Source: an uncultured bacterium (GTDB taxonomy: Bacteria > Krumholzibacteriota > Krumholzibacteriia > Krumholzibacteriales > Krumholzibacteriaceae). From it: a DNA stretch of 64,000 nucleotides. The translations under genes and the position numbers were made by a program. Positions 8,329 through 44,224 of the stretch are shown here, piece after piece; position 1 is the stretch's first letter, and each line of letters begins with the position of its first letter. The stretch lies in assembly GCA_963786935.1 (NCBI GenBank), contig CAWBAN010000001.1:513158-577157 (forward strand). The letters are read 5' to 3'. The notes below the pieces were generated by a model. It had not been told where the DNA came from and did not search any database. It was given only the letters and a program-made list of their open reading frames with translations.

Positions 8329-8778
8329 ATGGCGGAGAAACCCAACAGAAAATTCATCGGCATGTTCCCCTGCACGCTCGACGCCAAGTCGCGGCTGACG
8401 ATTCCGTCGAAGTTCCGCGAGCTCGTTCCCGGCGAGGAGGGCTCCAAGATCCTCGTCATCAGCCGCGGCAAGGAGCGCTGCCTGTATCTGTTCACTCCCG
8501 ACTATTTCGACTGGATCATCGACCAGCTCGGGCTCCTGCCGCCGGGACCGCAGCAGCGGAACCTGATCCGGTATTACAGCAGCGAGTCGGAGCATCTCAA
8601 GGTCGACAAGGTCGGCCGGGTGCAGATGAGCGCGCGCCATCTCGAATCGTTCGGTCTCGCGAAGAACGTCGTCGTCGTCGGCGGCCTCACCCATATGGAA
8701 GTGTGGAAGCCCGAGGAGTACGAAAAGATCATGGAGTCCGCGGACGACGCGTATCACAACGGGGAATGGCAACTGTAG
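8329..8778 (+). CDS. mraZ: Transcriptional regulator MraZ
   Basis: Two MraZ/SpoVT-AbrB-like repeats are present (FPCTLDAKSRLTIPSKFRE ... VDKVGRVQMSARHLESFGL). The true start may be the internal ATG at 8362 (MFPCTLD). Confidence 0.9.
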   Translation: MAEKPNRKFIGMFPCTLDAKSRLTIPSKFRELVPGEEGSKILVISRGKERCLYLFTPDYFDWIIDQLGLLPPGPQQRNLIRYYSSESEHLKVDKVGRVQMSARHLESFGLAKNVVVVGGLTHMEVWKPEEYEKIMESADDAYHNGEWQL

Positions 8779-31195: not shown

Positions 31196-31237
31196 AAACG
31201 GGGCCCGGTGGGGGACATCAGCCGGAGGATCAAAGCG

Positions 31238-31807
31238 ATGATCGTCACTTGCGATGGATGCAGCACCAAGTATCTTCTCGACGACGCGAAGGTGCCCGAG
31301 AGGGGAATCCGCGTGAGGTGTCCGAAGTGCCGCTACGTCTGGCGGCTCATGCCGGTCGCGGACAAGTCGATGTTCGAGATCTCCGCGAGCGCGTTCTCCG
31401 ACACGGCGCCGGTCGCGGAGACCCCGAAAGGGGAGTGGGATTCGCTCGAGCGCTCGCTCTCGGCGCTCGCGGGGCGCATGGCGCCGCGCGAGGAAGACGT
31501 CGTCATCGACGAGGAACGCCCGGCCGCGGCGGCTCCGCCGAAGGCCGCGGAGGATCCCGAGGCGCGGCGATTCAAGGAGCGCTCAAAAAGATTGGCGCGC
31601 GTCTTCGTCAGTGATATTCTCGTATACAACAAGGACAAGCGGGACAAGGGGCTCGCCAGCGGCGATCTCATGACGGTCCTCGGTCCCGAGATCAAGAAGG
31701 CGTGGGAGGCCTACAAGGAGAAGATCGGCCCCAGCGTCGTCGAATCGAACGATTATTTCCGCGAGGCGTTGAACGATATTCTGGCCGACGGGCAGAAAGT
31801 ATTCTGA
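31238..31807 (+). CDS. Zinc-ribbon (MJ0042-type CxxC...CxxC) domain protein with uncharacterised C-terminal domain
   Basis: The N-terminus is MIVTCDGCSTKYLLDD...RVRCPKCRYVW. A Pro/Ala-rich linker and a conserved-looking C-terminal domain follow. Confidence 0.55.
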   Translation: MIVTCDGCSTKYLLDDAKVPERGIRVRCPKCRYVWRLMPVADKSMFEISASAFSDTAPVAETPKGEWDSLERSLSALAGRMAPREEDVVIDEERPAAAAPPKAAEDPEARRFKERSKRLARVFVSDILVYNKDKRDKGLASGDLMTVLGPEIKKAWEAYKEKIGPSVVESNDYFREALNDILADGQKVF

Positions 31808-31810
31808 GTC

Positions 31811-32644
31811 GTGAATGGCGATAGAATCGCTCTCGATATCCTGAATCTCAACCCGCCGCTGCGCGACGAATTTTTCGCCGCGGCGAAGCTCCCGGACGAG
31901 GTGTCGATCAGGGAATTCGACACGTTCGCCCGGTTCATAAAGGGCATCAAGGCCGATTCCGACTACCGCTCCAATCTGCTCATCTTTCTTCCGCCCAAGA
32001 AATTCGATCCCAAGAAGGCGCGCCTCGTGCGCATCGCGCGCCTCGAGGCGCCCCTCTACGTCGTCGCGCGGGAGTGCGGCGAGAAGGACTATCTCACGTA
32101 TCTCGCCGTCGGCGTCAACGCGGTGATGCAGCCGCCGTTCGGCAAGGGGGACGTGCAGCAGGCCCTGAACGGCCGTTCGCACGATCAGATTCCCTTCCCG
32201 CGGAGCGCCGACGTCATCAAGGAGGGGCAGGTGCGCCTCGATTTCCTCATCCCGAGCAAGCTCTCGCGCATCCTCGGCGTGAACCGGCTCGTCTCCTTTC
32301 TCGCCGACGAGTTCGGTTTCCCTCCCGAGGACAGCAAGGTCAACCTGCCGCTCGTCATGGACGAGGCACTGAGCAACGCGATCGTGCACGGGAACAGGAA
32401 CCGCGAAGACCGCAAGGTCCACGTGCGCATCTACGTCAGCTCGCACCGCTTTTTCGTGCAGGTGGAGGACGAGGGGGAGGGATTCCAGCCGGACGAGACG
32501 ATCGATCCGAAACGGGGGGAGAACCTCGTGAAGCCGTCCGGCCGCGGAATCTATCTCATGCGGGAGCTCATGGACCGGGTCGCCTTCAAGGAAGGCGGGC
32601 GCCTGGTCGAAATGGAGAAGATCAATCCCTTCTCGCGCGCCTAG
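31811..32644 (+). CDS. Anti-sigma-factor-like serine kinase (RsbW/SpoIIAB-type HATPase_c) fused to a degenerate receiver-like N-domain
   Basis: The C-half LVMDEALSNAIVHGNRNREDRKVHVRIYVSSHRFFVQVEDEGEGF...SGRGIYLMRELMDRVAF is the GHKL N-box/G-box arrangement of partner-switching kinases. The N-domain has a receiver-like layout but no obvious phospho-Asp. Confidence 0.65.
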   Translation: MNGDRIALDILNLNPPLRDEFFAAAKLPDEVSIREFDTFARFIKGIKADSDYRSNLLIFLPPKKFDPKKARLVRIARLEAPLYVVARECGEKDYLTYLAVGVNAVMQPPFGKGDVQQALNGRSHDQIPFPRSADVIKEGQVRLDFLIPSKLSRILGVNRLVSFLADEFGFPPEDSKVNLPLVMDEALSNAIVHGNRNREDRKVHVRIYVSSHRFFVQVEDEGEGFQPDETIDPKRGENLVKPSGRGIYLMRELMDRVAFKEGGRLVEMEKINPFSRA

Positions 32645-33114
32645 CTCTGGGCGTCCCCCCATTTTTCGCGAGCGATCTTGTCGAGGAGCTTGTCGATCTG
32701 GCCGCGGACGCGCTCGTCCTGGTCGGGCTCGAACAGCACCTTCTTGACCCTGCCCTGCTCGTCCTTCTGGACGTAGCGGAGCGCCTTGATGTGCTCGAGG
32801 GGAATGAGGATGTCCTTGCTCACGCGGACGTCGATGGGGGATCCGTCGAGGTTTGCGTCCGGGTGGTTGAACGGGTGCATCCCGACGCCCCATCCGTGCA
32901 CGAGCATGCTGCAGACGATCGCGCGGAAGGTGTTCTGTTTCTGAACGGTGTCGAGCTCGAACGTGCCCTGGAATTTCTCCATCATGCCGTCGACGACCGG
33001 CGTGAGCTTCTTGACCACGTCGTCCTTGGGCTCCGTGTTGAGCAGCCGGTTGAAGATCTCTTTCAGTATTCTTTCGGTGATCTGCATCGTGAACCCCCGA
33101 TCGTGGTTATCCAA
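32641..33114 (-). CDS. Hypothetical protein
   Basis: A 157-codon ORF convergent with the kinase gene, with overlapping stops. The true start may be the ATG at 33087. No family recognised. Confidence 0.4.
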   Translation of the reverse strand: MDNHDRGFTMQITERILKEIFNRLLNTEPKDDVVKKLTPVVDGMMEKFQGTFELDTVQKQNTFRAIVCSMLVHGWGVGMHPFNHPDANLDGSPIDVRVSKDILIPLEHIKALRYVQKDEQGRVKKVLFEPDQDERVRGQIDKLLDKIAREKWGDAQS

Positions 33115-35482: not shown

Positions 35483-36343
35483 TCAATCTCCCCAGATGCG
35501 TCTGAACATGCACCACTGATCGGCGTTGGCTCCGATGAAGCGTTCGACCGCTCCGTACATCCTCGCGAGCGCCTCCCGCTCGGATCCGGCCTCGATCTCC
35601 CCGGCGCTCATGATATGCTCGATGTGCAGCCGGTGCGCCGTGTTTCCCACGCGGCGGCAGTATCCCCCGAGAATGGGCGCTCCCGACGCGCGCGCGAGCC
35701 TCGCGGGGCCGTCGGGCAGGCGGGCGCTCCGGCCGAAGAAGGGCAGGTCGACGCCCCCCGTGTAGATATTGCCGTCGACGAGAAGGATGATGACGCCGTT
35801 CGCGGCGAGCGCCTTGAGCAGCTTCCGGTATGAATCATCCGGGCCGATCACGTCGATGCCGCGCCTTTTCTTCGCTTCCTTGACCGCGCCTGTGAGAAAC
35901 CTGTTCATTTGCACCCCCGCGACCACGTGGAGCCGGTATCCGAGGGCCTGCAGGCAGCGGGCGCCGAGCTCCCAGCTCCCCGTATGCACCGAGACGACGA
36001 TGGCCCCTTTCCCGCCGGCGATCGCCGCATCGAGCGCTGCGCGTCCCTCGAGATCGCACCACCCGAGAATGGTGTCGTCGTCCCAGGCGAGAGAGGCGAA
36101 CATCTCGATGAGGTTCGTTGCATGAAGCCTGAAGACGCCGAAAACCCGCTCGTCCGTCGGCGAAAGCCCCGCAGCCGCCAAGTTCTCCGCGACATTACCC
36201 CGCTTCGAGCGCGAGATCGCGTAATCGAATCCGGCGCAGAGCCCGGCGATGCCGTTCCTCATGGAGGCGGGGACGGCGCTCGCCAGAGATGCAATCAACC
36301 TAAAGGTCAGCTTTCCAATATCTTCCACGATTTTGGCGAGCAT
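35483..36343 (-). CDS. Lysophospholipid/lipid-A-type acyltransferase (HtrB/LpxL/PatA-like, LPLAT superfamily)
   Basis: The HX4D-type region VHTGSWELG and the later DGNIYTGGVDLPFFGRSARLPDGPARLA match the Lip_A_acyltrans pattern. It lies directly upstream of GT4 with a 3-nt gap. Confidence 0.8.
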   Translation of the reverse strand: MLAKIVEDIGKLTFRLIASLASAVPASMRNGIAGLCAGFDYAISRSKRGNVAENLAAAGLSPTDERVFGVFRLHATNLIEMFASLAWDDDTILGWCDLEGRAALDAAIAGGKGAIVVSVHTGSWELGARCLQALGYRLHVVAGVQMNRFLTGAVKEAKKRRGIDVIGPDDSYRKLLKALAANGVIILLVDGNIYTGGVDLPFFGRSARLPDGPARLARASGAPILGGYCRRVGNTAHRLHIEHIMSAGEIEAGSEREALARMYGAVERFIGANADQWCMFRRIWGD

Positions 36344-36417
36344 ACGGTGCGCGAAACAAATCTGTCAAGCTCCATGAATCGGCGGGAACGCTCGTCTCCC
36401 GGCGCCGCCGCGCGCCG

Positions 36418-36433
36418 TGGCACGGTTCTGGCT
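36418..36433 (+). promoter_or_regulatory. Candidate sigma54 (-24/-12) promoter TGGCACGgttcTGGCT
   Basis: GG and GC lie at the canonical 10-bp spacing, but the -12 element is TGGC rather than TTGC. It sits about 35 nt upstream of the 36469 start, with an AAGGGGGA ribosome-binding site in between. Confidence 0.35.
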
Positions 36434-36468
36434 CATTCCGACTCCGGCGTCTCAAAGGGGGATTTGCA

Positions 36469-36879
36469 TTGCAACTTTCGAGTGAAACAACCCTTTTCAT
36501 GCAAAAAGCGATCTATTACGTGACCAAGCCGATCGCCGCCCGCGGGATGCTCGAGCTCACCGATCGATGCCTGTATTTCCAGGTGTTCCCCTTCGACGCT
36601 TCGTTCGGGATCAAGAACGTCTCGATCGATGTCGTCGCTATCAACGACGTGACCATCGAGGTGGGAGACCTGCATCCGAGAATCTGCGTCTTTGCCGACC
36701 GCAAGTACGAGTTCGTGCTTTCGAAAGGGCAGCAGCTGTACGACCGGTTGAAGGAGCTTCGACGCGATCCCCTGCGGCAGGGCTTCGGCGCGGCGAAGCG
36801 GGACGAACGCCCCTGCGCATGCGGGCAGCCGGTCCAGAGCGGCTTTCGATTCTGCCCCTGGTGCGGCGCGAAGCTCTAG
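36469..36879 (+). CDS. Hypothetical protein with bacterial PH/GRAM-like N-domain and C-terminal zinc ribbon
   Basis: TTG start with a good RBS; an internal ATG lies at 36499. A C-terminal CxC...CxxC cluster is present. The N-part resembles small PH-like membrane-proximal domains. Confidence 0.5.
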   Translation: MQLSSETTLFMQKAIYYVTKPIAARGMLELTDRCLYFQVFPFDASFGIKNVSIDVVAINDVTIEVGDLHPRICVFADRKYEFVLSKGQQLYDRLKELRRDPLRQGFGAAKRDERPCACGQPVQSGFRFCPWCGAKL

Positions 36880-36992
36880 AGGACGACCGCGTATTTTTTC
36901 CATTGTGAAGGCGCCTTCCATCTGTTAAATTCCATCAGGAGTTGAACCGATCCTCAAGGCTGGGATTCCGAGAGATATCAGAGGAGGTATCG

Positions 36993-37343
36993 ATGTTCCG
37001 GGTCGGTGTTTGTGCGTTGGCAATGCTTCTGTTATCGATGTTCTTCGGTTGCAGTGACGAAACGACGGATACTGAACCGACCGGAGTGGAGGTAGCCTTT
37101 CCGAGCTGCCTGACGTTCAACGTGGTAGTTTTCATCGACGGCAATTACGTCGGATCGTACTCGAGCGAGCGGTCCTGGTTCATCGACATTGCGGCGGGCA
37201 CGCATCATCTCGAAGCCCATTCCAATCTCTCCGTCGTCGAGGATAACACGGGATTTTGCTGGGATGAGACGTTCAGCGTCGCCGACGGCAGCACGACGCT
37301 GCTCAGTCTCCCCTGCGATACCGCCGCCTGCCCCGCGGAGTAG
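36993..37343 (+). CDS. Small lipoprotein, hypothetical
   Basis: AGGAGG RBS, a signal peptide and a lipobox-like MFFGC are present. GC content is about 57%, below the surrounding level. Confidence 0.5.
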   Translation: MFRVGVCALAMLLLSMFFGCSDETTDTEPTGVEVAFPSCLTFNVVVFIDGNYVGSYSSERSWFIDIAAGTHHLEAHSNLSVVEDNTGFCWDETFSVADGSTTLLSLPCDTAACPAE

Positions 37344-37401
37344 AGATGCCGCGCCGCCGGGAATGAGGCGGATTCGACAGCGGCTGCGTTGCACTTTTCA
37401 C

Positions 37402-37436
37402 GGGCCCTCTCTCAATACCGGAGAGGGCCTTTTCCA
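37402..37436 (+). terminator. Rho-independent terminator
   Basis: A 9-bp GC-rich stem GGCCCTCTC/GAGAGGGCC with a 9-nt loop is followed by TTTTCC. Confidence 0.6.
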
Positions 37437-37473
37437 TGAGTGTCTCCCGGAACGCCGCGATATCTCCCAACCA

Positions 37474-37499
37474 CCCTATTCTTAATAAGTTAAAAAATG
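37474..37499 (+). promoter_or_regulatory. AT-rich motif CCCTATTCTTAATAAGTTAAAAAATG (copy 2 of the element at 8154)
   Basis: It matches the mraZ-upstream motif closely (CCCTATT..TTAATAAGTTAwAAAwTG). It lies just upstream of the sigma54-like site. Confidence 0.4.
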
Positions 37500-37516
37500 T
37501 AATCGAATGTTGACGG

Positions 37517-37532
37517 TGGCATGGTCCTTGCG
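37517..37532 (+). promoter_or_regulatory. Candidate sigma54 promoter TGGCATGgtccTTGCG
   Basis: It matches TGGCACG-N4-TTGCW at 14 of 16 positions with exact GG/GC spacing. It sits about 155 nt upstream of the mglA-like start. Confidence 0.5.
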
Positions 37533-37688
37533 CTCGTTCCGAAGTGCCGGGGTGGGCGCTTCGCAGCGTCACGGCAGGGTCAGCACCCCCAGATCGAGCA
37601 TCGAGGAATCTGCTCCAGAACACGGCTTCCGTGCGCGCGCATCGGGTGAGCAGCATTCCCACCCCGGCGCAGATTGAAAGGGAGTGAT

Positions 37689-38789
37689 ATGGCAGTCTTC
37701 AATTACGCCGGCGGAGAGATAAACGCGAAGATCGTCTATTACGGCCCCGGTCTCAGCGGCAAGACGACGAATCTCGAATTCATCTATTCGAAGCTTCCCC
37801 GCGAGAACAAGGGCAAAATGGTCTCGATGAAGACGCGGACCGACCGCACCCTCTTCTTCGATTTCCTGCCGATCGATATCGGCGAGATCAACGGGATGAA
37901 GGTGCGCTTCCTTCTGTACACGGTGCCCGGCCAGGTGTATTACAACGCCACGCGCAAGCTCGTGCTCAAGGGAGTGGACGCAGTCGTGTTCGTCGCGGAT
38001 TCGGCCCCCGACCGCATGCAGGAAAACAAGGAAGCCATCCAGAATCTCGAAGACAACCTGAACGATCTCGGCTTGACCCTGAAGACGATTCCGTGGGTGA
38101 TCCAGTACAACAAGCGCGATCTGCCCAACCGGATCGAGCGCGAGATGATGGACCAGGAGCTCAATACCGACGCCGTGCCGAGCTTCGAAGCGGTCGCGAG
38201 CAAGGGGGGCGGCGTGTATGAGACGTTCGCCGGAATCGCGAAGCTCGTTTTCAAGAACATGCAGGAAGAGCTGAAGGATCCCGAGCGGAAGCGCGAGGCG
38301 CGCGAGCCGCGCAGCCGGGAGCGCCTCAACATCGAGGTCGTCGCGAAAGGCTCCGTGAAGACCGAAGCGGCGACGGGCGGGGACGACTACCGGAATTGCG
38401 CGGGGAAGAAGGAAGAGGAACCCGCTTCCGTTTCCGAGTTCGTCGACAGCGTGCTGAAGGACCGCGTCGATCCGCAGAGCATCGATCTCGGCGCGACGCG
38501 TGAGGGATACGAGGAATACGGCCATCTCGTCGATCTGAACGGCGCCGACGCGAAGGAGCCGGGGGCTTCCCCGCAGGCGACGAAGCCGGGGGAGATTCTC
38601 TCCGATTCCGTCGAGAAGCTCAAGGCGAAGGTCGCGCTGCAGGAGGCCGAGGAGCCTCCGAAGACGGAGCCCCGGCCGCGCCTCGACGTGGTCGAGGAGA
38701 AGCTGATCCGGGTTCCCGTGCGTCTCTCGAAAGAGGAGATGGCGAAAGAGATCCGTCTGAACATCATCATCGATATCGCCGTCGATTGA
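37689..38789 (+). CDS. mglA: MglA-family Ras-like GTPase with ~175-aa charged, low-complexity C-terminal extension
   Basis: The G-domain (about aa 1-190) aligns closely with Myxococcus MglA: EINAKIVYYGPGLSGKTTNL (P-loop), TRTDRTLFFDFLP (switch I), LYTVPGQVYY (switch II) and IQYNKRDLP (NKxD). The Glu/Lys/Pro-rich tail (38270..38789) is in the same frame. Confidence 0.85.
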   Translation: MAVFNYAGGEINAKIVYYGPGLSGKTTNLEFIYSKLPRENKGKMVSMKTRTDRTLFFDFLPIDIGEINGMKVRFLLYTVPGQVYYNATRKLVLKGVDAVVFVADSAPDRMQENKEAIQNLEDNLNDLGLTLKTIPWVIQYNKRDLPNRIEREMMDQELNTDAVPSFEAVASKGGGVYETFAGIAKLVFKNMQEELKDPERKREAREPRSRERLNIEVVAKGSVKTEAATGGDDYRNCAGKKEEEPASVSEFVDSVLKDRVDPQSIDLGATREGYEEYGHLVDLNGADAKEPGASPQATKPGEILSDSVEKLKAKVALQEAEEPPKTEPRPRLDVVEEKLIRVPVRLSKEEMAKEIRLNIIIDIAVD

Positions 38790-38899
38790 ACGCGCGAAAA
38801 GACTTGACCCGATACGAGACGGGGTGTGAAAATCGGAACCGGAGCGCTCGACAGGCTCCGGTTTTTCGATTATATTTGCGTTATAGAGGGGGAGCCGCC

Positions 38900-39268
38900 A
38901 TGGCGAAGATATTGATCGTCGACGACGAAGTCAACGTGAGGAAGCTCTACAGCGAAGAGCTTCGGAGCGAAGGGTACCTTACCGTCTCGGCGGCCACCGT
39001 CGCGGAGGCGATCGAGTCGGTGGAGAAGGAGGAGCCTGATCTCGTCATTCTCGATATCAAGCTCGGCGAGGAGAGCGGCATCGACGCCCTCATGAAGATC
39101 GCCAAGCAGCGCAAGCGGCTGCCGGTGATCCTGAACTCCGCGTACTCGGTCTACAAGGACAATTTTCAGACGTGGGCGGCGGACGCGTATATCGTGAAAT
39201 CGGTCGATCTCACGCCGCTGAAGGAAAAGATACGGGATCTTTTGACGACACGGAGGACGCAGGCGTGA
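38900..39268 (+). CDS. Single-domain CheY-like response regulator
   Basis: Receiver pattern: KILIVDDE, phospho-acceptor DLVILDIKL, T/S in LNSAYS and K in YIVKS. It lies inside track ORF 38786..39268. Confidence 0.85.
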   Translation: MAKILIVDDEVNVRKLYSEELRSEGYLTVSAATVAEAIESVEKEEPDLVILDIKLGEESGIDALMKIAKQRKRLPVILNSAYSVYKDNFQTWAADAYIVKSVDLTPLKEKIRDLLTTRRTQA

Positions 39269-39714
39269 TGATGATGATGATGAAAAGAGCGTGCGTTGCA
39301 TCGATGATTATCGCGTTCGCATCGGTCGCGGCGCTCGCGCAGACCGGGAGCGCGCCGACGCGCCAGAGCGTGTTCTCGGATTATCTGAATCCGCAGACGG
39401 GGGCGTCGTTCCTCCGCGTGCCCGGTCTGAGCTTCTCGTCTTCGGCGGGATTCTCGTATTTTTCCGGGGGCGGCGGGGATTCGTTCGGCATGGGCTACTA
39501 CATGGGGCATTTCGGCCTCAAGCTCTCGAGCTCGATCAGCCTCAACTGGGACGTCGGCGTCGGTTCGGTCATGCGAAGCACGAGCGAATACAACCAGCCG
39601 CAGTTCTTCATTCCGAACATGGACCTCACGTACCGGCCGAGCGACAACTTCATGCTACGGATCGAGTATCATCAGAGCCCGTACACCGGCGTCTCCCGGG
39701 CCTTCGGGCGATGA
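39268..39714 (+). CDS. Small secreted Gly/Ser-rich protein (signal peptide), function unknown
   Basis: GTG then (ATG)5 at 39265-39282. The start overlaps the RR stop. A signal peptide is followed by a mature region rich in Gly, Ser, Tyr and Phe. Confidence 0.5.
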   Translation: MMMMMKRACVASMIIAFASVAALAQTGSAPTRQSVFSDYLNPQTGASFLRVPGLSFSSSAGFSYFSGGGGDSFGMGYYMGHFGLKLSSSISLNWDVGVGSVMRSTSEYNQPQFFIPNMDLTYRPSDNFMLRIEYHQSPYTGVSRAFGR

Positions 39715-39818
39715 CGATCGGCGCCCGGCGAGCCACAACATGCTGGGCCGAGAAAATCTTGACATCCAAGATATAGTGCTATAGCCTTGCGGAAAAGCTG
39801 CATCGTTGGGCGTTTCCA

Positions 39819-40988
39819 GTGCGGAGGTTTGCGGTGCTTCGCTGGGATAGACTGATCGATATCGCCCGCGGCGAGGGCGCGGAGGAGAGCAGGGAGATCG
39901 TCCGTCTGACGCGGAAATACGAGGCGGGCGAGGCGCAGCCCGAAGAGATCCTCGAGCTCGCCGGGCATCTGCTCAAGGGCCGGAATCCGAAGAAGGGGGA
40001 AAAGGCGATCATGGAGCTGATCGAGTCCCCCGATCTCGACGAGGCGCTCCTCGAAGAGGCGTGCGAGCTCCTCGAGCAGGTCGGCAGCTACGAGCTCGCG
40101 CTCGGGGGCTACGGCAGGGTGCGCGAGCGCGACCCCGGCAAGGCCCTTCCGCTCTACCGCATGGGGCGGCTCCTCGAGATGCAGGGGAGGCTCGACGAGG
40201 CGATCGCGCTCCACCGGCAGGCGATCGCGGTCGAACGCGACAATCCCGAGTGCTACTACCGCCTCGGCGTCGCGCATACGAAGAATCACCAGTACGAGGA
40301 GGCCGAGGAACAGTACCGCAAGGCGATCGACATCGATCCGACGCATTCGAAGTCGTACACGAACCTCGGCTACATTCTCGATCTCCAGGGCAAGCGCGAG
40401 TCGGCGCTGCTCCAGTTCCGCAAGGCGGTACAGCACAATCCGAAGAACGCGGAGGCGCATTTCAATCTCGGCGCCCTGTACGGCGAGGAGGGTGATCGGG
40501 ACCAAGCGATCAAGGAGTTCCGCATCGGTCTCGAGCTCGACACGGCGAGCATCGAGGGGCATTACAACCTCGGCCTCGCCCTCATGAACGAGGGGCGCCT
40601 CGACGACGCGGAGGAGGAGTTCAAGCGCATTCTCAAGATGGAGCACGACAACGTGAACGCGCTCTTCTACCTCGGATTTCTCTATTACCGGAAAGGCGTG
40701 TACGGGAAGGCGCTCAAGCACCTGCAGCACGCCTCGCGCCTCAATCCGGGGAACTCCACGATCCTCTATTACGTGGGCGAGTGCTTCAACAAGCTCGAGC
40801 AGCCCTCGAAGGCGCTCGAGTACTACAAGAAGGTCACGGAGATCAACCCGACCGATTCGAAGGTCTATTTCAGCCTCGGCGTGATCTACGAGAAGCAGGA
40901 CGACAAGCGGAAGGCCCGTGAATACTACAAGCTCGCCGCCCTCAAGGCGCAGGACGAGGCGCCCGGAGGAACGCGGGTCGTCGAATGA
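39819..40988 (+). CDS. TPR-repeat protein
   Basis: About 8 canonical TPR units (e.g. AEAHFNLGALYGEEGDRDQAIKEFRIGLELD). ATGA overlap with the downstream gene. Confidence 0.75.
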   Translation: MRRFAVLRWDRLIDIARGEGAEESREIVRLTRKYEAGEAQPEEILELAGHLLKGRNPKKGEKAIMELIESPDLDEALLEEACELLEQVGSYELALGGYGRVRERDPGKALPLYRMGRLLEMQGRLDEAIALHRQAIAVERDNPECYYRLGVAHTKNHQYEEAEEQYRKAIDIDPTHSKSYTNLGYILDLQGKRESALLQFRKAVQHNPKNAEAHFNLGALYGEEGDRDQAIKEFRIGLELDTASIEGHYNLGLALMNEGRLDDAEEEFKRILKMEHDNVNALFYLGFLYYRKGVYGKALKHLQHASRLNPGNSTILYYVGECFNKLEQPSKALEYYKKVTEINPTDSKVYFSLGVIYEKQDDKRKAREYYKLAALKAQDEAPGGTRVVE

Positions 40989-42550
40989 AGTCGCTTGCAT
41001 CGATGAAGAGAGCCATTGGCGCGGCGGCCATTCTCGCTGGCGTACATTGCATGGCGCCGGCCGTCCGCGCTGAAACCATTCCTCCCGACAGCTGGGCGTA
41101 CGGGGCGCTGCGGGCCTTCGAGGTGAGCGGGCTCGTGAGACTCGAATCGACGCTCCCGTACACCTATATGCAATGCGAAGCCTATACTCGTGAGATCCTC
41201 GCGAACGTGGATGCGCGCGGCGTTGCGCTCGGTCCGCGGCACGCGTTTCTTCTCGAGCGCCTCGCGAAGCAGTTCGTCGGAATGCGCGATCGTCCCGAGG
41301 ACCGGTGGAGCAAGCCGGTGTACACGGTGCGCGAGGATGAGCGCTTCGCGGCACTCGACGCGAGCGTCGGCGGTTCGGTCGAGAGGAAGCCCGACGGGGA
41401 TTCATGGGAAGCGTTCGGGCTCGCCGTTCCGGGCATCCTCGTGGGATTGGGGCACGGCGTCACGATGGAGACGAGCTACCGGCTCGTGATGGGGCCGGAG
41501 CAGGGAAGCAACGCGCACCTGGAAAAGCCCGACGCGCGGCTGCGGAGCTACCACGGCCTGACGGGGGAGTTCGAGCGGGGGCTCATCGACGCGGGCGGCG
41601 ACTGGTGGCAGGTGCGCGCGGGCAGGGAATACATGCAGTGGGGAAGCGGTCCGCGCGAGGGTCTCACGCTCTCGAGCGCCGGGGGATCGCTCGACCACGT
41701 CGGCGCCCGCTTCACGCTCGGGCGTTTCGCGCTCAGCACGTTCCAGGCGGTTCTCAGCTCCGAGCCGGAGAGACGCTTCGCGGGGCATCGCCTGACCGCC
41801 GCGCTGCCGAACGGTATCGATGTCGGCATCGGGGAGACCGTGGTTTATGCGGGGAATATGGATTGGAAGTATCTGACGCCCCTTGGCTTCTTCTACGCCC
41901 ATCAGTACAACGAAGGAACCAACGCGGATAACATTCTCTGGACGCTCGATTGCAAGGTGCCGCTTCGTCCGGGCCTGCTGCTCTCCGGGGAGTTTCTCAT
42001 CGACGACATTCAGTACGAGCGCGACGAGAATGCCGGTCCGGACCGGCTCGGCCTCACGGTCGCGGCGGAAGCGCTCTTCATGGTGGCGGGGAGGGATCTC
42101 GAGGTCGCCGCCGGATACACCTTCATCGACGCGTACACGTACGGTCATTCGGGGGGATCGCAGTACGTCGCCGGCGACGGCGACACGGAGATGAATCCGC
42201 TCCTCGGCGCTTCGATGGGGCCCGACGCGGACCGGAGCTTCATCACGGGAACGCTCGGTCTGAGCGCGCGGACCGCGTTCACGATCGAGGGGGGCGGCAC
42301 GAGATACGGCGCGTTGAGCACGCTGTTCCACGCGGCGCTGCCCGATTGGGCCCCCGGCATGGACAGCGATCTTCCGTTCCCGAGCCCGCCGGTCCTGTAC
42401 GTGAAGTATCTCCTGGCGAGCCTTCGCTATGATCTGAATCACGGATCGTACGTTTCGGCCGGCGCGTGGATGCGGCAGCTCGATCGGGACGCCGACGATG
42501 TCCACACGAGCGGGAGCTACGGCTGGTTCGAGGTCGTTCTGGATCTCTGA
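40985..42550 (+). CDS. Wzi-family outer-membrane protein (capsule/surface-polysaccharide anchoring lectin-porin)
   Basis: The signal peptide is followed by DSWAYGALRAFEVSGLV...TLPYTYMQCEAYTREIL, which matches the Wzi N-helical motif. The internal YMQWGSGPREGLTLS resembles Wzi QWWGPGYEGSLI. A beta-barrel-like alternation runs to a C-terminal aromatic residue. Confidence 0.65.
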   Translation: MKSLASMKRAIGAAAILAGVHCMAPAVRAETIPPDSWAYGALRAFEVSGLVRLESTLPYTYMQCEAYTREILANVDARGVALGPRHAFLLERLAKQFVGMRDRPEDRWSKPVYTVREDERFAALDASVGGSVERKPDGDSWEAFGLAVPGILVGLGHGVTMETSYRLVMGPEQGSNAHLEKPDARLRSYHGLTGEFERGLIDAGGDWWQVRAGREYMQWGSGPREGLTLSSAGGSLDHVGARFTLGRFALSTFQAVLSSEPERRFAGHRLTAALPNGIDVGIGETVVYAGNMDWKYLTPLGFFYAHQYNEGTNADNILWTLDCKVPLRPGLLLSGEFLIDDIQYERDENAGPDRLGLTVAAEALFMVAGRDLEVAAGYTFIDAYTYGHSGGSQYVAGDGDTEMNPLLGASMGPDADRSFITGTLGLSARTAFTIEGGGTRYGALSTLFHAALPDWAPGMDSDLPFPSPPVLYVKYLLASLRYDLNHGSYVSAGAWMRQLDRDADDVHTSGSYGWFEVVLDL

Positions 42551-43371
42551 TGCGAAAAATCCTGAGCCTCATAATCGTGATGCGTCCGCACAACGTCGCG
42601 GCGGCGCTCCTCTCCGTGGCCGTCGGTTTCGCCATGACCGGCTCGACGCGCTGGCCGTGGCTCGTCTTCGCCGCGGCCGCGTTCGCCACGGCGGCGGGCA
42701 ACACGATCAACGATATCTACGACGTCGATATCGACCGGGTCAACAAGCCGCGGCGGCCCCTCGCCGCGGGGGCGCTGGGCACGACCGCCGCGATCGGGCT
42801 CTACGCCTTCTTCTTCGCCGCGGCGGTGTTTCTCATGCTGTTTCTTCCGGGAGAAGCCGCCGTGTGGATCGGCGTGTGGATCGTGCTGCTCCACATCTAC
42901 AGCTGGCGGCTCAAGCGGATGTACCTCGCGGGGAACGTCCTCGTCTCCGCCGTGGCGGGTTCCGGATTTCTCCTCGGCGCGCACATCGGGGGAAACGTCG
43001 CGGCGGGGGCCGTTCCCGCGGCGTTCACGTTCTTCTTCGTCATGGGGCGCGAGATCGTGAAGGACACGGACGACATCGAGGGAGACCGGATCTGCGGGGC
43101 GAGAACCTTCCCGATCGTTTCGGGGCGCCGCGCGGCGCTCACGACGGCGCTCGCGATCTTTCTCGCGCTGTGCGTCGCGTTTCCGGTGCCGGCCTTCATC
43201 GGGATGTACGGACGAGCCTATGCGCTCATCATGATGCTCAGCGTGGTGCCGATTCTCTTGGTTTCGATAGGGATCATTCTCGGGGGGCGGTCGCTCGGGG
43301 TCGTGAGCACGCTCCTGAAGATCGGGATGTTCTTCGGCTGCATCGCGTTCTATTTCGGGCCGCGGCGATGA
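42550..43371 (+). CDS. UbiA-family polyprenyl transferase (MenA/UbiA/DGGGPS/DPPR-synthase-like)
   Basis: The Asp-rich motifs NDIYDVDIDRVNKPRRPLA and DTDDIEGDRICGARTFP are present across about 8 TM helices. TGATG overlap with the upstream gene. Confidence 0.8.
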   Translation: MRKILSLIIVMRPHNVAAALLSVAVGFAMTGSTRWPWLVFAAAAFATAAGNTINDIYDVDIDRVNKPRRPLAAGALGTTAAIGLYAFFFAAAVFLMLFLPGEAAVWIGVWIVLLHIYSWRLKRMYLAGNVLVSAVAGSGFLLGAHIGGNVAAGAVPAAFTFFFVMGREIVKDTDDIEGDRICGARTFPIVSGRRAALTTALAIFLALCVAFPVPAFIGMYGRAYALIMMLSVVPILLVSIGIILGGRSLGVVSTLLKIGMFFGCIAFYFGPRR

Positions 43372-43399
43372 AGCGGGCCGCGAAGGGAGACGGGCCGTC

Positions 43400-44224
43400 G
43401 TGAGCATGAGTATGTGGATCGTCGTTCTCCTCGCCGTCGTGCAGGGGCTCACCGAGTTTTTCCCGGTGAGCTCCTCGGGGCACCTCGTCATTTTCGAGGC
43501 GCTTCTCGGCACGCGGGCCGGAAACGGCCAGAGCGGGCTCATGTTCGAAATAGCGGTGCACCTCGGGACGCTGGGCGCCGTGATCATATTCTACCGGGCG
43601 AAGGTTCTTCGCCTCTGCCGCGCGCTCTTCGCTCCGATTTTCGGGGGCGGCGGATACGCCGCCTATCGAAACGAGCTGCGCTACATCGGCCTCATCGTCC
43701 TCGGATCGATGCCGGCGGGGCTCGTCGGCGTTCTCTTTCACGAAGACGTGGAGAAGACGTTCGAATCGCCGAGCATCTCGGCGATCCTGCTCGTCGCCAC
43801 GGGAATCTATCTCCTGATGACGAAGCTGCGCGCCGTGCGGGGGAGACTCGGATGGCAGTCGGCCCTCATCATCGGCGTGGCCCAAGCGATCGCGATCCTT
43901 CCGGGCTGTTCCCGGAGCGGCTGGACGATCGCGACGGGATTGCTCATCGGCGTCGGTTTCGCCGAAGCGGCCGAGTTCTCGTTTCTCCTCTCGATCCCCG
44001 CGATCCTCGGGGCGCTCGCGCTGACGCTCGCGAAGGAGCCCGGCGTGCTGAACGCCGGATCGATCGCGCCGCTGGCGATCGGCGCTGCAGCGGCGTTTTT
44101 CGCGGGGCTCATCGCCCTCAAGCTCCTCATCGGGATTCTGACGAGAGGGGGGTTTCACCGGTTCGCCTATTACCTGCTGCCGGTGGGGATCGCGGCGTTC
44201 GTCTATTTCAGGCTTCGGGTTTGA
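43400..44224 (+). CDS. uppP: Undecaprenyl-diphosphatase UppP (BacA)
   Basis: VVLLAVVQGLTEFFPVSSSGHLVI and PGCSRSGWTIATGLLIG are the BacA signatures, across about 8 TM segments. Confidence 0.9.
   Translation: MSMSMWIVVLLAVVQGLTEFFPVSSSGHLVIFEALLGTRAGNGQSGLMFEIAVHLGTLGAVIIFYRAKVLRLCRALFAPIFGGGGYAAYRNELRYIGLIVLGSMPAGLVGVLFHEDVEKTFESPSISAILLVATGIYLLMTKLRAVRGRLGWQSALIIGVAQAIAILPGCSRSGWTIATGLLIGVGFAEAAEFSFLLSIPAILGALALTLAKEPGVLNAGSIAPLAIGAAAAFFAGLIALKLLIGILTRGGFHRFAYYLLPVGIAAFVYFRLRV

Follow-up and report, generated by a model that had tools for sequence, protein, structure and literature searches.

How is a Ras-like switch controlled in bacteria without MglB, its canonical GTPase-activating protein (GAP)? 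Among bacterial polarity GTPases MglA serves as the model, and its understanding rests on the module of MglA, MglB and RomR-RomX. The question is posed anew by a long mglA gene on a 64,000-nt stretch of DNA from an uncultured bacterium of the Krumholzibacteriaceae (contig CAWBAN010000001.1 of assembly GCA_963786935.1; the whole stretch is here called the window), the product of which continues beyond an MglA-type G domain into a 175-aa acidic tail. We found that this gene is no one-off but represents an MglA variant that is widespread and conserved and has so far escaped analysis, and that the encoded protein is best explained as a group-1 MglA Ras-like GTPase predicted to be catalytically competent. 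The long-tailed lineage offers a way to approach the question above, and it bears on how other MglB-less relatives, such as SofG and the MglA of Bdellovibrio, are switched off and positioned.

The hallmarks of group-1 MglA proteins are TVPGQ together with an intrinsic arginine next to the G2 threonine (PMC4316618), and both were present in the window protein. Its G1 P-loop GPGLSGKTT spans residues 19-27, TRTDRTLFFDF residues 49-59 with the arginine finger R53 and the G2 threonine T54, the G3 motif TVPGQ (replacing DxxGQ) residues T78-Q82, and the G4 motif NKRD residues N141-D144. An earlier interpretation of this DNA (the sequence-only reading) had named PGLSGKTT, TRTDRTLFFDF, VPGQ and NKRD as MglA hallmarks, and all four were found at these residues. 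In an alignment of 117 homologous sequences (53-89% identity), from which the motif conservation reported here was determined, TVPGQ and R53-T54 were invariant, as was the P-loop residue G21, and switch I and switch II were nearly so. Using phmmer against the PDB, residues 1-191 could be aligned without gaps to the MglA of Myxococcus xanthus (E 2e-71) and that of Thermus thermophilus (1e-69), with 58-60% identity to the solved structures (PDB 5ymx, 6izw, 6h17 and 3t12), and with the same P-loop, R53, catalytic Q82, TVPGQ, NKRD and fold; the next families, Arl8 and Sec4, had E-values of 1e-6 or worse. A structure model made with AlphaFold2 (AF2) gave, in Foldseek, template modelling scores (TMt) of 0.86-0.91 against MglA structures over ~191 columns (0.91 to 6h17), while Ras, Rab and Arf proteins scored 0.6-0.77 and were fourteen orders of magnitude behind. 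The G domain could have proven to lie outside MglA, but both searches placed it within. The sequence and fold features of group-1 MglA (G1-G5, TVPGQ and the arginine finger) were all present, and judged by these residues the G domain is MglA-type with its catalytic residues intact. In size the protein differed from the small single-domain proteins (150-240 aa) that the study defining the group took in, and from canonical MglA, a single-domain protein of ~195 aa encoded beside mglB, since it has 366 aa with an acidic, predicted-disordered tail containing conserved motifs, and no mglB nearby. Within the G domain it further differed from canonical MglA at E50R, S/A48K, H75L, C13A, S88T, I92V and K181A/E.

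The length of 366 aa departs from the 371 aa given in the sequence-only reading, the coordinates of which (37689-38789) were right. The open reading frame (ORF) at 37674..38789 (+) encodes 371 aa if counted from a TTG, but the ATG at 37689 is preceded by GGGAG and coincides with the start of all homologues (MAV(F/Y)NY), at the same position as the start of M. xanthus MglA, and the protein is therefore 366 aa long.

It could be argued that the extension is an artefact, produced by a frameshift or by assembly fusion of two ORFs, or else a functionless low-complexity appendix that drifts. Its compositional bias (D+E+K+R amounting to 40% of the tail), the disorder predicted by AF2 and the absence of any Pfam domain in it would agree with such a view. 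The ORF uniting G domain and tail was, however, found uninterrupted in >100 independent assemblies (NCBI, JGI, ENA and Logan), which excludes a frameshift or assembly fusion and also a tail encoded as a separate ORF, and the extension was kept in >100 homologues. One public protein (P0001), encoded on a 1.59-Mb contig, was 100% identical to that of the window. The protein search returned 8000 relatives, and the best 120 of these, which were looked at in detail, were 341-450 aa long (with one 257-aa fragment) and nearly all had 100% query coverage, the few named organisms among them being Candidatus Krumholzibacteriota or Krumholzibacteria. The GC content at third codon positions was 0.85 in the tail and 0.84 in the G domain. 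In comparison with an 84%-identical orthologue, the G domain had a ratio of non-synonymous to synonymous substitutions (dN/dS) of 0.03 and the tail one of 0.36; inside the tail the ratio was 0.17 for the motifs versus 0.56 for the linkers. Several tail residues were invariant. A phmmer search with the tail only against 1.84 billion representative sequences gave five matches, each of which was a fragment of the fused gene, so that the tail is not a separate protein family. Taken on these sequence data, the reading of the tail as an artefact or a functionless appendix is effectively refuted and has a very small residual probability.

What, then, does the tail consist of? It is rich in E, K, R, D, A and P, with E+K+P making up 31% of its residues versus 18% in the G domain and D+E+K+R 40% versus 25%, and in the window protein it has a net charge of -10. 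In the alignment, conserved motifs lay amid variable linkers, some of which had large insertions, and five tail motifs were conserved in >100 homologues. The motifs, here numbered M1 to M6, are positioned in Table 1. In M2, S227 (94%) and E228 (92%) are conserved, while the window protein has A/A at these positions, and its closest relative (P0003) also diverges in this motif. The consensus of M3 was AE.REEEHESVSEFVDxVLxE, in which A238, V248, S249 and L256 were invariant and E243, E244, S247, E250 and F251 were conserved to at least 95%. M4, which reads DLGATREGYEEYGHVVEL (residues 266-283) when tabulated with the consensus rows of the motifs, had G273, E275, Y277, G278, H279 and L283 invariant, and its core G(H/R)-h-V-x-L-(D/N) was kept in loci L003-L006. 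In M5, D306 and P307 were each conserved to 86%, the window protein having S at position 307 (38607-38609); the form EF[IV]TDP[MC] was found in L003 (in three copies, EFITDPM), L004, L005 and L006. The terminal element, M6, had the consensus EKxIRVPVxLSxEE..KEIxLKVILDIxV, with V342 at 91% and P343 at 97%, and its core forms the last ~28 residues of the window protein (IRVPVRLS...IRLNIIIDIAV). Counterparts of M3 were found in the tails of Latescibacterota and their relatives, and M4, M5 and M6 likewise had counterparts in such more distant long MglAs.

When AF2 was run with the 117-sequence alignment, the predicted local distance difference test (pLDDT) score was below 50 at residues 202-334, with linkers at 33-44, and rose to 55-71 over the last ~30 residues; for a long MglA of Geothrix type the terminal motif reached 72-74. 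Structure prediction, proposed as a check together with the sequence-only reading, thus gave a disordered tail. Searches of the window tail and six terminal segments of other phyla against Pfam at E up to 5 gave noise only, an NCBIfam search of the protein found no specific tail family, and hhalign of the tail against an MglB profile gave a probability of 0.3%, i.e. no Roadblock-like domain was found in cis. The tail is hence, as seen from alignment and model, a selected, acidic and predicted-disordered region with conserved linear motifs. Its earlier description as a low-complexity acidic/basic tail rich in E, K and P was correct with regard to the biased composition, but mere low complexity does not describe a region with five conserved motifs and a shared terminal element.

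To place the window gene among its relatives, we used 80 MglA loci from a scan of one genome per species, together with further syntenic loci, and the accompanying scan for MglB covered 84 loci. Three classes could be distinguished. Class i comprised short MglAs of 192-209 aa at 42 loci, with mglB directly upstream in 33 of them; the loci lacking it were two at contig ends and seven in a Gemmatimonadota subclade that has lost mglB. Class ii comprised long MglAs ending in a basic amphipathic or transmembrane helix, from Zixibacteria, Chitinivibrionia and Planctomycetota, with mglB downstream in 8 of 11 loci and often a second MglB-like gene upstream. Class iii comprised long MglAs with an M6-type end, recognized at 29 loci with the regular expression h-x-[VIL]-P-h-x-h, 5-16 residues, h-x-h-x-h-x-h-x-h, and in addition at L002, which has A for P. 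Its members came from Krumholzibacteriota, Latescibacterota, Eisenbacteria, Gemmatimonadota, Holophagae (including cultured Geothrix), Thermoanaerobaculia and Polarisedimenticolia, as well as from a proteobacterial and a Zymogenaceae metagenome-assembled genome. Of 41 long MglAs, 29-30 had an M6-type motif near the C-terminus, compared with none of 3767 background ORFs of at least 100 aa from the same loci, and by this pattern the terminal motif is common to long MglAs of at least six phyla. The tails of class iii were uniformly acidic with a mean net charge of -17, versus +3.5 for class ii.

A neighbour-joining tree of the G domains grouped the proteins by type of tail and not by taxon, which argues that class iii is one or a few old paralogous lineages and not a recent local oddity. 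Thermoanaerobaculia and Gemmatimonadota had members, at the level of the phylum, in both the short MglB-coupled and the hairpin-tail clades. Compared with the MglB-coupled class, both hairpin-tail clades had E50 changed to R/K in switch I, H75 to L/Q, and C13A, S88T and I92V, and the hairpin-tail clade of the Fibrobacteres-Chlorobi-Bacteroidetes (FCB) group in addition had K48 where the MglB-coupled class has S/A48. A survey of prokaryotic Ras-like GTPases found 488 sequences of the MglA clade, of which it took into its analysis only the 449 below 240 aa, and its table lists the 39 long ones set aside as 14 coupled to MglB and 25 not (PMC4316618). As this only systematic survey dropped MglA-clade proteins above 240 aa, the long lineage has not been analysed so far, and our literature search found no description of long MglAs, nor of MglA together with these phyla.

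The absence of a Roadblock gene near the long mglA, claimed in the sequence-only reading, was borne out both within 10 kb and in the whole window. An iterated hidden Markov model (HMM) built from 48 MglB ORFs was run over all ORFs of 60 aa or more, with E-values as high as 10 allowed, and matched none of these in the window; Robl_LC7 was not found by Pfam among the small window ORFs; and hhalign of every small window ORF of unknown family against the MglB profile gave probabilities that were all below 1%. No mglB was therefore found directly adjacent, nor within four genes of mglA, the distance used to define coupling. Across the loci, a homologue of MglB was found within 10 kb at 0 of 30 terminal-motif loci versus 41 of 53 other MglA loci (Fisher p=4e-13), and in comparison with other long MglAs alone at 0 of 30 versus 8 of 11 (Fisher p=2e-6), these counts being of loci that are not phylogenetically independent and that involve at least three separate clades. 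Among the best 120 matches of a Holophagales MglB query, judged by their names, none carried the name of Geothrix.

With regard to the surrounding genes, the most constant neighbour was one encoding a cytoplasmic tetratricopeptide repeat (TPR) protein. An orthologous TPR gene lay downstream of the long mglA in L001-L005, L007-L010 and L081-L084, i.e. in every sufficiently long FCB-type locus, from four phyla, and the orthologues were colinear with mutual E-values of 1e-40 to 1e-240, compared with a background of ~1e-18 between TPR proteins. The gene was located 100-1200 nt downstream of the long mglA in 14 of 14 such loci even where the receiver gene or other neighbours differed; in L003, L004, L007, L008 and L010 it followed after 106-318 nt with no receiver gene in between. 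It also co-varied with the M3-M5 motif set. The sequence-only reading had likened the downstream genes to an MglA-RomR-TPR arrangement in Bdellovibrio. The TPR part of that comparison held, in that the orthologous gene follows the long mglA in four FCB-group phyla, but the RomR part did not, as the receiver here is a bare domain, and in Bdellovibrio the arrangement is a network of interactions and not an order of genes (PMC3983030). In this lineage the mglB operon has been lost, and the acidic tail is conserved together with a terminal motif shared across phyla and, in the FCB group, with a fixed TPR neighbour ahead of envelope-biogenesis genes; the lineage offers handles in the form of defined motifs, a candidate partner protein and cultured Geothrix hosts.

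Conserved motifs within disorder are a classic signature of docking sites, and TPR domains bind short extended or helical peptides. We therefore favour, tentatively and at slightly less than an even chance, a reading in which the tail is a flexible tether with docking sites, the TPR protein is the best candidate ligand and the terminal element makes a second contact. The G domain would cycle between GTP and GDP like MglA, and the motifs of the tethering tail would serve as docking sites. The most plausible ligand of the tail in phyla of the FCB group would be the cytoplasmic TPR protein of the downstream gene, because TPR domains bind short peptides and because this gene co-varies with M3-M5. 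Binding to it would couple the switch to the envelope operon that the TPR gene heads, with its outer-membrane protein, UbiA and BacA. The terminal element probably makes a different contact, since it is kept where the TPR gene is absent and reached a pLDDT of ~70 in two AF2 runs; this contact, with the protein's own G domain or with a scaffold, could position or regulate the GTPase in a lineage that has no mglB-mglA operon. The binding of the tail to the TPR protein, any fold-back of the tail on the G domain and the cellular process controlled are inferred. Precedents exist in that GltJ has a disordered linker with a linear motif to which MglA-GTP binds (PMC11135422), and, from experiments on pairs of MglA and TPR proteins, in that Bdellovibrio MglA binds Bd2492 (PMC3983030) and M. 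xanthus MglA binds SgmX (PMC7519303, PMC7668184). The earlier suggestion that the tail could be a partner-binding or localisation region fares best as a reading of the conserved motifs in disorder and of the TPR synteny, and it keeps its conditional form.

Several observations weigh against the tether reading. About 15 kb of gene order is conserved across these phyla, so that the TPR gene may in part owe its place next to mglA to inherited synteny and not to functional coupling. The acidobacterial genes of class iii have the terminal motif but no TPR neighbour, and the TPR protein thus cannot be the general ligand of that motif. Co-transcription of mglA with the TPR gene is not indicated, because mglA is followed by its own terminator-like hairpin and then a promoter-like site. 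Finally, in neither of the AF2 models, of the window protein and of the Geothrix-type protein, was regular secondary structure seen in the tail motifs.

Two further readings must be weighed, which are in part compatible with the tether reading and with each other. According to the first of them the long MglA is an accessory paralogue resembling SofG, with a canonical mglBA operon or an orphan mglB elsewhere in the genome, a GAP acting in trans, and a tail that only anchors the protein to a scaffold or a pole. We consider this unlikely, though well worth reckoning with. The tree separates hairpin-tail proteins from the MglB-coupled short MglAs, with Thermoanaerobaculia and Gemmatimonadota holding both kinds at the level of the phylum, and the almost invariant switch I and II are as expected if partners bind there in trans. 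In the Krumholzibacteriota sequences examined, however, there was no canonical MglA or MglB; the best 120 homologues were all of the long form, and so was the only other Krumholzibacteriia locus (L006). SofG has an N-terminal extension, which the window protein lacks, its residue 1 aligning to residue 1 of MglA (SofG being compared by description only), and its G domain, ~60% identical to MglA, resembles MglA proper and not a distant paralogue; both features suggest a lineage distinct from SofG. The M. xanthus SofG is nonetheless similar in being a group-1 relative longer than its G domain and not coupled to MglB; it is an orphan paralogue that is not stimulated by MglB and is thought to dock on the bactofilin scaffold BacP (PMC4316618, PMC4085708), which speaks for the resemblance.

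The other reading, which we regard as less probable than that of an accessory paralogue, takes the tail for a regulator within the protein itself, acting in cis in place of MglB and of RomR/RomX. Depending on the nucleotide, M3, the terminal element or both would fold back on the G domain and, like the D/E-rich Ct-helix of MglB or the Glu-rich helix of RomR in trans, hold the flipped beta2 strand in place and adjust exchange or hydrolysis, giving a self-contained switch. It would explain the perfect anticorrelation of acidic tail and terminal motif with an adjacent mglB, as counted above. D/E-rich helices of MglB and RomR, carried on flexible linkers, bind an allosteric pocket of MglA formed by alpha5 and the beta2-beta3 loop, where they are interchangeable and promote nucleotide exchange (PMC6785124). 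M3 (EEE..SVSEFVDSVL) shares their acidic, amphipathic character but lies within MglA itself, whereas the MglB and RomR helices act in trans from other proteins, and its resemblance to the Ct-helix of MglB was judged by eye. The pocket residues I64, I67 and K185 are kept in the window protein, but K181 is A in the window protein and E in the family consensus, so that an acidic helix in the docking position of the MglB helix would be repelled. In favour of this reading are also the switch-I charge reversals, E50 to R/K in both MglB-less hairpin clades and S/A48 to K in the FCB clade, as well as the pLDDT of ~70 for the terminal motif in two families, versus 33-45 in the linkers, which suggests packing in the monomer model. 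On the other hand, AF2 gave neither a helix at M3 nor a beta-ladder for the terminal element, hhalign detected no Roadblock-like signal in the tail, and the GAP action of MglB needs a Roadblock dimer surface that a peptide would not obviously replace. More doubtful still is the wider proposal that the acidic-tailed, terminal-motif long MglAs together form a class of self-contained Ras-like switches, in which the tail would take over in cis the roles of MglB as GAP and allosteric exchange factor along with those of RomR/RomX, the terminal element clamping and releasing the G domain according to nucleotide state. If true, bacterial small GTPases would have, in such a cis-regulated class, a type of regulation that has not been described for them so far, found in at least six phyla including cultured Geothrix.

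In function the window protein resembles the network of MglA, TPR protein and outer-membrane operon in Bdellovibrio bacteriovorus. That species has an MglA active in the absence of MglB, the partner of which is a cytoplasmic TPR protein of ~350-390 aa without a signal peptide, although there mglA is short, adjoins recR and is not adjacent to the TPR gene (PMC3983030). In both cases the TPR gene heads an operon with an outer-membrane protein, here by overlapping the gene for that protein, but the genes that follow in Bdellovibrio encode TamB/TamA (the tamAB operon; PMC3983030) and here Wzi-like, UbiA and BacA proteins, and the TPR proteins are likened by description only. The RomR of Bdellovibrio has several parts, in contrast to the bare receiver of the window, and some MglB-less MglAs carry A/S21 in the P-loop (PMC3983030), while G21 is intact in the window protein, which is thus not of that 'locked' type. 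In architecture there is an analogy, and an analogy only, with the eukaryotic Ras, Rho and Rab proteins, where a G domain is likewise followed by a flexible variable linker and a short terminal targeting element, the terminal element here being a strand-turn-strand motif and not a lipidation or membrane signal. The long-tailed proteins could thus show whether bacteria use such a eukaryote-like design.

Table 1. Features of the long mglA gene, its product and its downstream neighbours, with positions in the window.
Feature	Position	Strand	Basis or remark
Long mglA	37689..38789	+	366 codons + TGA; ORF list, start set by N-termini of homologues
Shine-Dalgarno-like GGGAG	37680..37684	+	4 nt 5' of ATG, read from sequence
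Group-1 MglA G domain, residues 1-191	37689..38261	+	phmmer, Foldseek, dN/dS 0.03
Acidic C-terminal tail, predicted disordered, residues 192-366 (175 aa)	38262..38786	+	AF2, charge, dN/dS 0.36
M1 IEVVAKG, residues 215-221	38331..38351	+	E216 invariant; V218/A219 97% in 117 sequences
M2, residues 227-232	38367-38384	+	Family consensus SETDES; window diverged
M3, residues 238-258	38400..38462	+	Acidic run then SVSEFVDSVLKD, amphipathic-helix pattern
M4 DLGATREGYEEYGHLVDL, residues 266-283	38484..38537	+	Alignment conservation
M5 EILSDSVEKL, residues 302-311	38592..38621	+	Family consensus EIIxDPLEKL
Terminal element M6 EKLIRVPVRLSKEEMAKEIRLNIIIDIAV, residues 337-365	38697..38783	+	Strand-turn-strand pattern, hydrophobics alternate in second arm
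Terminator-like hairpin with U-run	38831..38871	+	RNA fold -21.5 kcal/mol, z -4.1, 0/200 shuffles as stable
Promoter-like site	38848-38876		Ahead of receiver gene
Stand-alone receiver, 122 aa	38900..39268	+	Pfam Response_reg 3e-21; D8/D9, D51, S79, K101
Beta-rich signal-peptide protein, 148 aa	39268..39714	+	Start overlaps receiver stop by 1 nt; weak BBP2 porin hint
Cytoplasmic TPR protein, 389 aa, without signal peptide	39819..40988	+	Pfam TPR_1 1.5e-54
Predicted outer-membrane protein with signal peptide	40985..42550	+	Overlaps TPR gene by 4 nt
UbiA-family prenyltransferase	42550-43371	+	Pfam UbiA 2e-36; overlaps outer-membrane protein gene by 1 nt
BacA/UppP	43400-44224	+	Annotated BacA in syntenic loci; continues operon

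A 345-nt intergenic region precedes the long mglA in the window, and from the terminator-like hairpin and the promoter-like site that follow it the gene is probably transcribed on its own. Downstream, the receiver, the TPR protein and the outer-membrane protein were all as previously described, but that list was incomplete, the gene for the 148-aa protein having been missed. The receiver has an intact phospho-acceptor set, its best PDB match was TrrA (3a0r_B, 5e-24), and Spo0F was also among the closest. Its gene was found only in Krumholzibacteria-type loci and L005, and was missing at many related loci. We considered whether it could be RomR and rejected this, as it is a bare 122-aa domain without the Pro-rich linker and Glu-rich C-terminal region. 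The overlap between the receiver gene and that of the 148-aa protein (TGATG) pairs a cytoplasmic signalling domain with a secreted protein, which is odd, and was kept in all Krumholzibacteria-type loci.

The genes for the TPR protein, the outer-membrane protein and UbiA followed each other with overlapping stops and starts, and then came BacA, both in the window (39819-44224) and in L081 (15013-20602). Orthologues of the outer-membrane protein in L083 and L084 carry PF14052 (Caps_assemb_Wzi), but an identification of the window protein as Wzi was rejected, the Pfam match being found in the orthologues only and the window protein having no Pfam or PDB match. In the syntenic loci BacA was followed by a UbiE-type methyltransferase, a FAD_binding_4 protein and an SDR epimerase, and the set of genes from TPR to epimerase looks like a pathway for a polyprenyl-phosphate-linked envelope glycan.

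Upstream of mglA (36469-37343) are two small conserved genes, one for a 136-aa protein with a C-terminal CxxC...CxxC zinc ribbon and one for a small lipoprotein with an FFGC lipobox, the true start of which is likely near 36993. Both were restricted to Krumholzibacteria-type loci, and between them and mglA lies a terminator-like hairpin (37407-37427). Further upstream, at 31208-33114, were found a 199-aa protein with an N-terminal Zn_ribbon_4 domain (PF13717, 5e-15), a HATPase_c_2 protein and a divergent 157-aa ORF without family, a trio that was syntenic with the long mglA in loci of Krumholzibacteriota and Latescibacterota. Zinc ribbons are known as well from GltJ and ZitP, the ZnR domains of which have solved structures. 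The GC content was 0.59-0.61 at 36001-40000 and 0.64-0.70 elsewhere in the window. An ORF with a type IX secretion C-terminal sorting domain (Por_Secre_tail) at 92-466 and a cell-division/cell-wall cluster starting with MraZ at 8329-8778 fit a genome of the FCB group.

For the acidobacterial long MglAs, clustering of the flanking ORFs gave lineage-specific neighbours only, which in Holophagae were gltX and a gene for an FHA-RDD protein. The long mglA of Geothrix sp. PMB-07 (L085, 8870-9865) is monocistronic and located between these two genes, and in all the Holophagae loci (L085, L011, L014, L016, L023 and L024) it was divergently adjacent to the gene for the FHA-plus-RDD protein of ~330-345 aa, which may be a lineage-specific partner.

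Loci of the class ii kind (L012, L057 and L059 of Planctomycetota; L015, L031 and L029; L030 and L041; L050) encode tails that are neutral or basic, one of them ending in ...KKRSFFKKLFGIK, and most of these genes lay between two MglB-like genes, of which the upstream one encodes ~112-190 aa and the downstream one ~160-175 aa. By sequence these proteins look like membrane-anchored MglAs that retain their GAP, and several (L012, L015, L031, L057 and others) closely parallel the variable-linker-plus-anchor design of Ras, Rho and Rab. In a Longimicrobiales subclade of Gemmatimonadota (L038, L055, L065 and L078), finally, short MglAs with TETERT in place of TETDRT and the P-loop GTGLGGKT were found without mglB, in the gene order ybaB-recR-[106-aa membrane protein]-mglA, which recalls the recR-mglA synteny reported for the MglB-less Bdellovibrio.

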